Positions 44,767-46,182 of a stretch of DNA of 64,000 nt are shown piece by piece. Made by a program: the position numbers and the translations under genes. The stretch comes from an uncultured Cryomorphaceae bacterium (GTDB lineage Bacteria > Bacteroidota > Bacteroidia > Flavobacteriales_D > Cryomorphaceae), in NCBI GenBank assembly GCA_964635965.1, contig CAZWQX010000001.1, positions 18,014 to 82,013 on the forward strand. Reading direction: 5' to 3'. A model generated the notes under the pieces. It was not told where the DNA came from, made no database searches, and saw nothing but the letters and a program-made list of their open reading frames with translations. Numbering within the stretch: position 1 is the first letter of the stretch; the number at the start of each line of letters is the position of its first letter.

Positions 44767-44893
44767 GAAATTCTTAATCGGCCGAATAACTATTTCAAAT
44801 AATAAGTATAATTATACCGATAAGTGGAGATCCGAAACCACAAAAACGAGGCGTTACCGAAAAGCCAAATGAGTAGGACCTAATTAATATATT

Positions 44894-45184
44894 ATGAAGC
44901 TATTTAAAAATCTCTTTTTCCTCGGTGCGGGAATTATGATGCTCAGTTCATGCTACGTAAATACCGTGGTTGTAGGAAATGGAGCTCAAGGAAACAAAGA
45001 AGTCAAAGCTTGGAATCATTATGTGATTTATGGATTAGCGCCTGTTGGCGTAGCCGATCCTGCTAAGCTCGCAGGAGACGCCAAGGATTACGATGTGGAA
45101 ATCAAGCACTCATTTGTCAATGGATTAGTTGCCGGTTTAACCTTTGGAATCTACACCCCCACAACTACGACTGTAATTAAGTAA
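44894..45184 (+). CDS. Bor/Iss family lipoprotein
   Basis: Lipobox LSSC; WNHYVIYGL and HSFVNGLVAGLTFGIYTP pattern. Confidence 0.8.
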   Translation: MKLFKNLFFLGAGIMMLSSCYVNTVVVGNGAQGNKEVKAWNHYVIYGLAPVGVADPAKLAGDAKDYDVEIKHSFVNGLVAGLTFGIYTPTTTTVIK

Positions 45185-45208
45185 TACGGTCAACATCCGC
45201 AGAACAAG

Positions 45209-45403
45209 ATGAAATTCATTTTTGGAATATCCATTCTGATCCTCCTAATCAGTATTATCATGGGAATTCGAATTTTGATCATTGTAAGTTCCGGCGAAGT
45301 CACCCCATTTGGTTACGGCTACTCTACCGGAATACTTATTCTATTTACCATAGGATTGCTCGGTACGATTCTTTCAGGAAGAAAGATATTCCGAGAAAAC
45401 TAG
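45209..45403 (+). CDS. Small two-TM membrane protein
   Basis: 64 aa, two hydrophobic helices; lies between bor and a terminator. Confidence 0.55.
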   Translation: MKFIFGISILILLISIIMGIRILIIVSSGEVTPFGYGYSTGILILFTIGLLGTILSGRKIFREN

Positions 45404-45426
45404 GAGAGTTACAATTTGAACAATGT

Positions 45427-45458
45427 AAAAGGCGACACCAAATGGTGTCGCCTTTTTT
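45427..45458. terminator. Bidirectional intrinsic terminator
   Basis: AAAA-GGCGACACCA-aa-TGGTGTCGCC-TTTTTT; T tracts on both strands; separates the bor block from the tRNA-like gene. Confidence 0.85.
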
Positions 45459-45459
45459 G

Positions 45460-45574
45460 CTGTAGGGGAAGGATTCGAACCTTCACGGAGCAGTTAGCCG
45501 ATAGCAGCGCCGATTTATCCCTTAACTCCACCCCCGAGACAGGAGGGCATGTCTGCCGGTTTCATCACCCTACA
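45460..45574 (-). tRNA. Non-canonical tRNA-like RNA: Asp (GTC) anticodon, 46-nt variable region, 115 nt
   Basis: TGTAGGG/CCCTACA acceptor + G73; ATG/CAT D stem with GG; CCCTC-CTGTCTC-GGGGG anticodon arm; GAAGG-TTCGAAT-CCTTC T arm. Confidence 0.85.
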
Positions 45575-45702
45575 TTGTTGACACTAAGGTATATTTAATA
45601 CCGATAAAATGCATATTTCGTTACTATTTATGATTATTTTTACGATATAATCAAAATATAGCCGATCCATTGCATATTACGCAATCCAATCTAAATAATT
45701 GA

Positions 45703-46182
45703 ATGAGCAATTACCAAATTGACAATGTAGATCTCCAAATTCTGGAAATTCTTAGCGAGAATGCACGAACTGCTTACACGGAAATCGCCGAAAAGCTACT
45801 CGTATCCCCGGGAACCATTCACGTCAGAATGAAAAAAATGGAAGCTGCCGGAATGGTAAAGGGTACTGAAATCGTAGTAGACCCAATCAAACTGGGATTT
45901 GATCTTACCGCTTTTATTGGCGTTTTCCTTGACAAGGGCGCCACATACAATGATGTGATAGATCAACTCAAAGAAATTGACGAGATCACCGAGGCATACT
46001 ACACAACAGGAGGTTACAGTATCTTCTTGAAAGTAATGTGCAAGAACACGGAAAACCTAAGAGACGTGTTAAACCAAAAAATCCAAAGAGTAGGGGGAAT
46101 TCAGAGGACCGAGACTATCATCTCTCTTGAGCAAAGCATTCGTCGAAAGGCACCGCTAAGAACGATTAAACCCAGGCGTTAA
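45703..46182 (+). CDS. asnC: Lrp/AsnC family regulator, close to E. coli AsnC
   Basis: NARTAYTEIA..L.VSPGTIHVRMKKM, EAYYTTGGYSIFLKVMC, QRTETIISL. Confidence 0.88.
   Translation: MSNYQIDNVDLQILEILSENARTAYTEIAEKLLVSPGTIHVRMKKMEAAGMVKGTEIVVDPIKLGFDLTAFIGVFLDKGATYNDVIDQLKEIDEITEAYYTTGGYSIFLKVMCKNTENLRDVLNQKIQRVGGIQRTETIISLEQSIRRKAPLRTIKPRR

Follow-up and report, generated by a model that had tools for sequence, protein, structure and literature searches.

What kind of RNA is encoded by a gene that has the shape of a tRNA, the identity nucleotides and GUC anticodon of tRNA-Asp, a body resembling that of tRNA-Leu, and a variable arm of 46 nt? The question is raised by a 115-nt gene on the minus strand of a 64,000-nt stretch of DNA from an uncultured Cryomorphaceae bacterium (GenBank assembly GCA_964635965.1, contig CAZWQX010000001.1, positions 18,014 to 82,013), the whole of which is referred to here as the window. 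On comparative sequence evidence, it is a real, conserved gene of Bacteroidota and their phages. This tRNA-shaped RNA gene is apparently undescribed so far: a literature search found no paper describing the RNA, and no Rfam family matches it in searches of the window and of a long-armed member from Dyadobacter. As to its working, we propose, with a probability of roughly 45%, that aspartyl-tRNA synthetase (AspRS) charges the RNA with aspartate and that the amidotransferase GatCAB amidates the aspartate to asparagine, the RNA acting as a nondecoding Asp-to-Asn carrier off the ribosome. The evidence comes from the nucleotides that the RNA keeps, from a neighboring gene for an AsnC-type regulator, and from the genomes in which the RNA occurs.

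Spread and conserved structure of the RNA gene

Of 24 genomes from the same family, a BLAST search with a 126-nt stretch matched 19, with identities of 79 to 91%. Among the relatives, the conserved stretch runs precisely from U1 to G73-C74, between flanks that are unrelated. Twenty copies (alignment A1) were used, together with the cloverleaf structure, to build a covariance model (R1), which matches the window gene (G000:C1:63473-63587, equivalent to window positions 45460 to 45574) with 127 bits (E value, 2.9e-30). Across 151 genomes of the order, homologues score 83 to 132 bits versus at most 58 bits for class II tRNAs; the top match outside the RNA family is the genome's own tRNA-Leu(gag), at 58 bits. 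By this model, the RNA is present in 20 of the 21 genomes of its own family and sporadically in five other families of the order. The sole apparent noncarrier in its own family (G006) has a run of N exactly at the expected gene site. An unbiased model search across the phylum found the RNA in 12 of 151 genomes, and a pattern scan of one genome per species gave at least 120 matching stretches of 108 to 185 nt, with tandem arrays of up to five copies. Carriers from the pattern scan comprise Dyadobacter, Spirosoma, Cyclobacterium, Algoriphagus, Belliella, Arcicella, Marivirga, Fulvivirga, and Persicobacter in the Cytophagales and, beyond this order, members of the Chitinophagales (Saprospiraceae) and Flavobacteriales (Cryomorphaceae).

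Phages carry the gene as well. A pattern scan of IMG/VR retrieved at least 120 viral contigs with the RNA, and in many of the contigs listed it lies on the same strand within arrays of 7 to 25 tRNA genes, often including ordinary tRNA-Asp and tRNA-Asn genes, a setting that places it in the world of tRNAs and aminoacylation. On one array-bearing contig, there are also genes for a large terminase, an exonuclease, and an HNH endonuclease. A blastn search of 50,697 deposited phage genomes found no copy; phage copies are so far confined to uncultivated viral contigs. The viral copies within tRNA arrays, along with an anticodon loop that is tRNA-Asp-like with changes at positions 33 and 37, could be taken to mean that the RNA is a decoy against anticodon nucleases or tRNA-targeting toxins, serving chiefly in phage counterdefense; the bacterial copies would be either its source or an accessory to defense. 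We regard a decoy as very improbable. The chromosomal gene is syntenic, vertically conserved beside the AsnC-type gene over three orders, and located outside defense islands; the lack of copies among deposited phage genomes likewise speaks against a decoy, which would also leave both the AsnC link and the restriction to GatB-positive genomes described below without explanation.

The fold itself is upheld by comparison. Across 106 distinct homologues, 97.8% of alignment cells fall in standard pairs, versus 85.2% in shuffles and 56 to 61% when partners are slid, and 20 of the 32 pairs change on both sides, giving a covariation score of 0.348 versus ∼0.09 in slid controls. Covariation is seen at 4-69, 5-68, and 7-66 (AU/GC/UA) in the acceptor stem, at 10-25 and 11-24 in the D stem, at 50-64 and 51-63 in the T stem, and at every pair of the extra arm. 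Because the minimum-free-energy fold of the single sequence is no more stable than those of shuffles (z = +0.57), the structural evidence for the RNA is comparative, not thermodynamic. Every cloverleaf feature is present: a perfect 7-bp acceptor stem (UGUAGGG/CCCUACA), U8 and G9 between acceptor and D stems, A14, G18 and G19, a single G between D and anticodon arms, a 5-bp T stem, and a TTCRA T loop. The acceptor and T stems form a 7/5 arrangement, not lengthened by the A and G on either side of the acceptor stem, which do not pair. An initial annotation, made by reading the window alone, had listed the acceptor stem, G73, the T arm, a 3-bp D stem with an 11-nt loop, the anticodon loop CT-GTC-TC, and a 46-nt variable region, all of which are present at the positions given. 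Its view that the gene encodes an intact, specialized, stand-alone RNA rather than a decaying one is borne out by covariation and conservation; the search for homologues and compensatory changes that it recommended has led to three orders and to phages.

A humbler explanation would be that the gene is an ordinary tRNA in disguise, the arm being an intron whose removal gives tRNA-Asp, or else a functionless tRNA that is decaying or was left behind at an integration site. Standard tools would fit this. ARAGORN and Rfam, proposed in the initial annotation as a check, gave no call for the RNA: in the window, ARAGORN called only an unrelated tRNA-Arg, and Rfam at gathering thresholds only tRNA-Arg and a DUF805 RNA motif at 44819 to 44883. 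A permissive (E-value) Rfam search returned just a T-arm fragment, at 14 bits, plus the terminator, and the long-armed Dyadobacter member was likewise called by neither program. Some genomes also hold 3' parts of the RNA that are duplicated or left over near small insertions, as a remnant might be. Two full copies in G003 (L009/L022, G003:C4:64227-66088) lie 1.7 kb apart and flank two Bor-like genes and an AsnC fragment; G018 (L017/L024) has one full copy plus a 43-nt 3' copy 1.5 kb off; and G031 (L021, G031:C37:10282-10404) keeps only the 3' two-thirds of the RNA, adjoining AsnC. The pattern is like that of elements integrating at the 3' ends of tRNA genes, and no integrase was seen. Nevertheless, a disguised or decaying tRNA receives the least credence of all the explanations considered here. 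Removal of the arm would still leave a pyrimidine at position 37, a variable position 33, and U1-A72; the arm has a conserved, covarying structure of its own with no bulge-helix-bulge or group I features; the genome already has a normal tRNA-Asp; and purifying selection is evident across orders and phages.

What is conserved beyond pairing points in a particular direction. U1-A72 (in 100 of 101 sequences), G2-C71, U3-A70, G73, and the entire anticodon stem are nearly unvarying, and G73 and C74 occur in every homologue looked at. The initial annotation had singled out the combination of GUC and G73, as read by AspRS, with U1-A72 on a class II body; this set, together with C38 and G2-C71, proved to be near-invariant while neighboring acceptor pairs covary. 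Positions 2-71, 3-70, and 73 match the tRNA-Asp of the genome, which encodes ordinary tRNA-Asp and tRNA-Asn in addition to the RNA, and position 1-72 matches the Asn/Gln type; the D arm is closest in sequence to that of the genome's tRNA-Leu(gag). The invariance of the anticodon arm in alignment A3 is partly a matter of ascertainment, as that arm served as the search pattern of the collection scan, and statements on loop variation therefore rest on model-based samples. In these, the loop reads CUGUCUC, CUGUCCC, CUGUCAC, CUGUCGC, UUGUCUC, UCGUCUC, CGGUCUC, or, in one genome, CUUUCUC, with the consensus YNGUCYC. At position 33, U, G, and C all occur, and at position 37 mostly U or C; U35, C36, and C38 are kept, as is G34 except in one genome. 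Because U33 is unconserved and position 37 is usually a pyrimidine, the RNA probably does not decode codons. The retention of G34, U35, C36, and C38 would fit reading by a protein that recognizes GUC and C38, not codon reading on the ribosome.

A conserved plan underlies the extra arm, which consists of a 4-bp basal stem, a 2-bp R-Y helix (G54.U83 and G55-C82), an internal loop with GAUAAA opposite CUAA, and an apical hairpin that varies in sequence and length with its pairing kept. The internal loop is one that we take to resemble the UAA/GAN motif. Of the arm pairings suggested in the initial annotation, only the basal GGAG/CTCC is upheld by comparison; conservation is lacking for TTA/TAA and GATA/TATC. 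That the GGAG of the arm might instead pair with CUCC on the anticodon side was rejected, as GGAG covaries with the 3' CUCC and not with the invariant anticodon stem. Within the family, the arm measures ∼39 to 115 nt. In many Cytophagales and Chitinophagales, its tip is a module of 60 to 110 nt in place of the hairpin, in which a UAAU...GGGUUGACCAC block is near-invariant and a further hairpin may be inserted; this module (e.g., L079:3446-3606, L080, L091, and L062) has no Rfam match. We know of no larger natural extension of a tRNA variable arm.

From the signals around it, we infer that the RNA gene is its own transcription unit and that its product is processed like a tRNA. A TAnnTT(T/A)G box is kept in the upstream regions of 18 relatives, six of which have the exact TAnnTTTG (e.g., TATATTTG, TAGATTTG, and TACATTTG); the candidate box in the window reads TACCTTAG. 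TAnnTTTG is the −7 element of Bacteroidota promoters, and a GCAAT block lies ∼20 nt upstream of the box. Most relatives have an intrinsic terminator, unrelated in sequence, at the same place behind the RNA, and in tandem arrays the terminator stands only behind the last copy. In the window, a strong hairpin with a T-run begins three bases past C74. The initial annotation had assigned this terminator to the RNA; being bidirectional, it can also end the convergent plus-strand gene at 45209 to 45403. In every RNA copy, a C follows G73, after which the sequences diverge, and the ordinary tRNA genes of the genome likewise read N73-C74 followed by non-CA, the CCA end not being encoded. Such an anatomy suggests that the RNA would be transcribed from its own promoter, probably under control of the divergent AsnC-type regulator, and would undergo RNase P cleavage, 3' trimming, and completion of CCA after the encoded G73-C74, as a tRNA does.

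The AsnC-type neighbor and the company of GatB

The regulator encoded divergently from the RNA belongs to the Lrp/AsnC family and is far nearer to E. coli AsnC than to other members. It scores 190.7 bits against the NCBIfam AsnC equivalog, below the cutoff of 227, versus 88 bits for the next family, and its best solved relative is Escherichia coli AsnC (2cg4; E value, 5.8e-44; next structure, 1.8e-21). An AsnC orthologue is adjacent and divergent to the RNA in all relatives from its own family and in every carrier of the order sample. The same arrangement occurs at 46 of 79 loci of other orders, with a spacing of 136 to 320 bp, and in 7 of the 12 unbiased matches from the phylum. Loci without the AsnC neighbor have unrelated housekeeping genes adjoining the RNA. 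In all, AsnC orthologues are found in 43 of the 151 genomes of the order, including two that are without the RNA (G026 and G099). There, the orthologue has asnA as its divergent neighbor, the classical arrangement of E. coli. Since the same regulator faces asnA in these genomes, the RNA occupies the slot of an asparagine synthetase gene.

The slot has other occupants as well. In family f14 (L319, L321, L323, and L318), it holds derived RNAs of 79 to 93 nt with a common UGCAAGGAA block, and in G026, G087, and G107 (L316, L325, and L326) two or three tandem RNAs of 117 to 118 nt each. These derived RNAs look like sister families of the giant-armed RNA. Separately, the AsnC-divergent slot of G152, G053, and G063 (L315, L320, and L322) consists of a short conserved AGAGGTAGTAGTCTT element and then a terminator hairpin; this element may be an unrelated small RNA or leader. 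With derived RNAs and AGAGGTAGTAGTCTT elements both found there, the AsnC slot seems to take small RNAs generally.

This range of occupants is what might be expected if the RNA were an uncharged regulatory or sensing RNA, i.e., an AsnC-controlled tRNA mimic that titrates or reports AspRS, GatCAB, or some other protein that binds tRNA, or that works by way of its conserved arms, with the tRNA half there for processing and stability. The f14-type RNAs keep the acceptor/T half along with an AAGGA(A/U)AAA-like motif, and other slots have only AGAGGTAGTAGTCTT and a terminator; in the giant-armed RNA, the sequence of the anticodon stem-loop is conserved far past the needs of pairing, and the internal loop of the extra arm is conserved too. 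Carriers, moreover, hold AsnB and AsnA genes. We consider a regulatory mimic unlikely, though the least unlikely of the alternatives. The exact G73, GUC, C38, G2-C71, C74, and tRNA-type gene end would be needless for a mere mimic, phages put the RNA among real tRNA genes, and nesting within GatB-positive genomes would demand an extra assumption.

That nesting was found as follows. The genome of the window encodes asparaginyl-tRNA synthetase (AsnRS; 600 bits), one bacterial AspRS, and GatB. No glutaminyl-tRNA synthetase (GlnRS) scored above noise in it (best match, 54 bits, a glutamyl-tRNA synthetase), so that GatCAB is needed for Gln-tRNA and hence available. GatB is present in 130 of the 151 genomes of the order, too common to be informative there, and a family of mixed state (f22; 71 genomes from 70 genera) was used instead. 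In f22, GatB is present in all 42 carriers, and the RNA is absent from all 22 GatB-less genomes (Fisher P value, 1.3e-12); the remaining 7 genomes, mostly fragmented assemblies, have GatB without the RNA. In the class-level part of the phylum sample, the RNA is found in 10 of 13 GatB-positive genomes versus 0 of ∼22 GatB-less genomes, and family f11 shows the same nesting, with the RNA confined to one of its two GatB-positive genera. Because relatives are not independent in a Fisher count, a tree was built from the single AspRS of 65 genomes. GatB-less genomes are scattered over this tree, requiring at least 12 state changes; well-supported branches force 7 or more of these. Among independent pairs of genomes differing in GatB, the RNA differs in the same way in 4 to 6 pairs, in the opposite way in 0, and is unchanged in 1 to 3. 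Taken with the AsnC neighbor, the GatCAB company suggests a link to asparagine.

Two further ideas about the carriers were rejected. No special type of AspRS was seen in carriers: each genome has one AspRS, and carriers and noncarriers are mixed on the AspRS tree. Neither are carriers short of asparagine synthetases, given that AsnB-family genes occur in 130 of the 151 genomes of the order, including all carriers. AsnA is rare in the order (6 of 151 genomes). The genome of the window has an asnA homologue (G000:C153:7214-7951; 272.9 bits) on a 9-kb contig of typical G+C content, with no AsnC gene beside it; the other 21 family members have no asnA, and this copy could be a lateral gain or binning contamination.

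The proposed route from aspartate to asparagine

AspRS is known to use G73, G34, U35, C36, and C38 as strong determinants and G2-C71 as a minor one; G1-C72 helps position the 3' end in the E. coli enzyme. For GatCAB, U1-A72 confers amidation, and G1-C72 and U20a are the antideterminants of tRNA-Asp (PMC9976931). On the route proposed here, the housekeeping AspRS would charge the RNA by way of G73, G34, U35, C36, and C38 plus G2-C71; with GUC as the anticodon, no nondiscriminating AspRS would be needed. GatCAB would then accept Asp-RNA, which has U1-A72 and is free of G1-C72 and U20a, and convert it to Asn-RNA. Asparagine would finally be released or handed on, the RNA and two housekeeping enzymes together amounting to an asparagine-regulated asparagine synthase. 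An Asn-charged GUC species would be kept off the ribosome by its giant structured arm, together with the pyrimidine at position 37 and the lack of conservation at position 33, and phages could carry the ∼150-nt gene in their tRNA arrays as a cheap boost of the same capacity. Given the determinants, the AsnC/asnA slot, and the GatB nesting, a route through AspRS and then GatCAB is the most economical. More tentatively still, the RNA may be viewed as a reusable cofactor that makes AspRS and GatCAB an asparagine-responsive synthase, run by AsnC in place of asnA, portable by phages as a gene of ∼150 nt, and having sister forms reduced to an acceptor/T minihelix.

The initial annotation had left the choice between an Asn carrier and a use outside translation, as decoy, sensor, or aminoacyl donor. 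GatB nesting, the asnA slot, and the nondecoding loop favor the Asp-to-Asn route, in so far as sequence comparison can weigh it, over these other uses. An aminoacylated donor for a process other than asparagine supply, passing Asp or Asn to a lipid, a cell wall precursor, or a peptide, or else a rare decoder used deliberately at GAY codons, has the same anatomical case for charging on its side, and high demand is suggested by the tandem arrays, which hold as many as five copies. Nonproteinogenic tRNAs that feed cell wall synthesis provide a precedent. We judge this improbable: no transferase gene is conserved beside the RNA, whose neighbors besides AsnC are unrelated housekeeping genes; the AsnC/asnA links point to free-asparagine homeostasis; and the unconserved U33 and pyrimidine 37 speak against rare decoding.

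A number of findings weigh against the Asp-to-Asn route. As regards the RNA itself, U1-A72, and A10 in place of G10, could weaken aspartylation, because G1-C72 helps place the 3' end in E. coli AspRS. GatCAB is not known to act on class II bodies. In G284 (L176/L186, G284:C1:3852069-3852399), two copies in tandem, next to an AsnC orthologue, read UUC (Glu type) in the loop CUUUCUC. The derived RNAs of the slot keep the UGU...ACA-G-C acceptor stem and the T arm and differ in the middle, with no D or GUC arm, and G087 has a derived slot RNA yet no GatB match. As regards genomic company, 33 of the 79 loci from other orders are without an AsnC neighbor. Many GatB-positive genomes are without the RNA. 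The AspRS tree is a single-gene tree, and the sign test on independent pairs is borderline (median P value, 0.06), with a uniform direction. The association of the RNA with GatB could reflect a third factor, such as a missing GlnRS. Finally, with AsnB-family genes in all carriers and asnA in the genome of the window, the RNA is not the only route to asparagine.

Feature map, known RNA classes, and wider meaning

The coordinates of the RNA gene, its parts, and its neighbor are collected in Table 1.

Table 1. Features of the RNA gene and its surroundings (window coordinates)
Feature	Position	Strand	Basis or remark
Whole tRNA-like RNA gene, 115 nt (position 1 to discriminator G73)	45460..45574	-	Covariance model and sharp conservation ends
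Acceptor stem, 5' strand, U1 G2 U3 A4 G5 G6 G7	45568..45574	-	Pairs with 45461-45467
D arm, Leu type: 3-bp stem ATG/CAT, 11-nt loop with A14, G18 G19	45549..45565	-	Sequence; 10-25 and 11-24 covary
Anticodon arm: stem CCCUC/GGGGG, loop CUGUCUC; anticodon GUC at 45540-45538	45531..45547	-	Sequence and alignment
Extra (variable) arm, 46 nt	45485..45530	-	Basal pairs and R-Y helix covary
Extra-arm basal stem	45529-45526 with 45490-45487	-	Covariation, all four pairs
Extra-arm motif GGGAUAAA, opposite CUAAC (45497-45493); apical hairpin beyond	45521-45514	-	Comparison
T arm GAAGG/TTCGAAT/CCTTC; canonical G53, T54, T55, C56, A58, C61	45468..45484	-	50-64 and 51-63 covary
Acceptor stem, 3' strand; G73 at 45460, encoded C74 at 45459; CCA not encoded	45459..45467	-	
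Intrinsic terminator hairpin with A- and T-runs on its flanks, bidirectional	45427..45456	.	Sequence; Rfam at permissive thresholds
Promoter −7 box candidate TACCTTAG	45584..45591	-	Aligned upstream regions of 18 relatives
AsnC-type regulator gene, divergent, 128 bp upstream of RNA gene	45703..46182	+	Pfam AsnC_trans_reg and HTH_AsnC

Several other observations concern the window and its genome. A 60-amino-acid open reading frame (ORF) with a TTG start (45416 to 45598, plus strand) runs antisense over the RNA gene. It is very likely spurious, because length changes among the homologues are not multiples of three and conservation tracks RNA pairing. The DUF805 RNA motif (RF03081; 66.9 bits) in the window precedes a Bor-like lipoprotein gene (44894 to 45184) and a 64-amino-acid ORF, not a DUF805 gene. 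As the nearest relatives are without the stretch that begins with this motif (44819 to 45403) or have it elsewhere, the RNA gene has a variable insertion spot on its 3' side. Elsewhere in the assembly, three close-packed, AT-rich, low-quality tRNA calls (Arg-ACG, Phe-GAA, and His-GUG; G000:C134:6097-6323) on a single small contig are unlike the other tRNA genes of the genome, and the trio may be phage or organelle-like DNA in the bin. ARAGORN called no transfer-messenger RNA (tmRNA) in the genome, an assembly of 274 contigs.

Among known classes, the canonical elongator tRNA (RF00005; ARAGORN) has the same cloverleaf as the RNA, which differs in escaping the detection tools and in an anticodon loop with U37 and, across the family, a variable position 33, where U33 and a purine at 37 are expected. 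A class II tRNA typically bears an arm of ∼10 to 24 nt that forms a simple hairpin, whereas the arm of the RNA, 46 nt long here, contains an internal loop, to which many members add another module. Within class II, tRNAs for Leu and Tyr carry A73, and those for Ser carry G73 with an arm orientation and D arm of their own type. G73 rules out Leu and Tyr identity, for which it is an antideterminant (PMC9976931), and the D arm and the base of the extra arm are of the Leu type, not the Ser type. The likeness to tRNA-Leu lies in the 3-bp D stem with its 11-nt loop and in the geometry at the arm base (1 nt before and 2 nt after). The RNA departs from tRNA-Leu in G73 (A73 in tRNA-Leu), U1-A72 (G1-C72 in tRNA-Leu), an Asp anticodon, and an arm 2 to 5 times the length of any class II arm with a conserved internal loop. 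With tRNA-Asp, it shares G73, G34, U35, C36, C38, and G2-C71, the two UUC copies in G284 being the exception; in place of G1-C72, a short-loop class I body, G10, and a purine at 37, it has U1-A72, A10, U37, and the giant arm. Like the GatCAB substrate tRNAs of the Asn/Gln type, it has U1-A72 and is without the antideterminants G1-C72 and U20a.

With the tRNA-Asn of the indirect pathway, which works through a nondiscriminating AspRS and GatCAB in a transamidosome, the RNA has in common U1-A72, G73, and the absence of U20a; the Asp-to-Asn ester chemistry proposed here is the same, and in the samples with GatB-less genomes the RNA was found in GatB-positive ones alone. It differs from this tRNA-Asn in having the anticodon GUC instead of GUU, so that an ordinary discriminating AspRS could charge it, and also in its class II body, an arm of 46 to 110 nt, a loop unfit for decoding, a product that would not be destined for the ribosome, and the AsnC-type regulator beside its gene. 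The E. coli asnC-asnA unit offers the parallel of an AsnC-like regulator that is divergent over a short AT-rich spacer; its partner there is a synthetase gene and here an RNA gene, the regulation by asparagine being presumed. As far as sequence and gene order can tell, the RNA would resemble the indirect-pathway tRNA-Asn most in its working, in a regulatory setting that is that of asnA.

Other tRNA-derived RNAs have left decoding and kept part of the fold, namely, the cell wall tRNA-Gly of Staphylococcus, tmRNA, the bacterial Y RNA YrlA, and allo-tRNAs. None of these combines an Asp identity set with a giant variable arm or is associated with AsnC or GatCAB. Allo-tRNAs and tRNA-Sec have 8/4, 9/3, or 8/5 acceptor/T arrangements, in contrast to 7/5 in the RNA. 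tmRNA has G3.U70, a tag frame, and pseudoknots; the RNA has U3-A70, a length of 115 nt, and no mRNA-like domain, and it was not called as tmRNA. From YrlA, it differs in having no Ro-binding stem.

If the carrier mechanism is true, the RNA would represent a new kind of system, in which the biosynthesis of an amino acid is scaffolded by RNA and uncoupled from translation. tRNA-dependent amino acid synthesis is usually seen as a relic bound to decoding; here, it would work as a metabolic device in its own right, equipped with an RNA cofactor and an amino acid-sensing regulator of its own and traded by phages. Cultivable, harmless carriers exist, leaving each step of the mechanism open to test. 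Should the mechanism prove wrong, the RNA is still a natural case in which to study how AspRS, GatCAB, EF-Tu, and the ribosome discriminate between tRNAs and look-alikes, and the gene itself, widespread and strongly conserved among environmental members of the Bacteroidota (Dyadobacter, Spirosoma, Cyclobacterium, Algoriphagus, Marivirga, Saprospiraceae, and Cryomorphaceae) and their phages, is absent from annotation pipelines.

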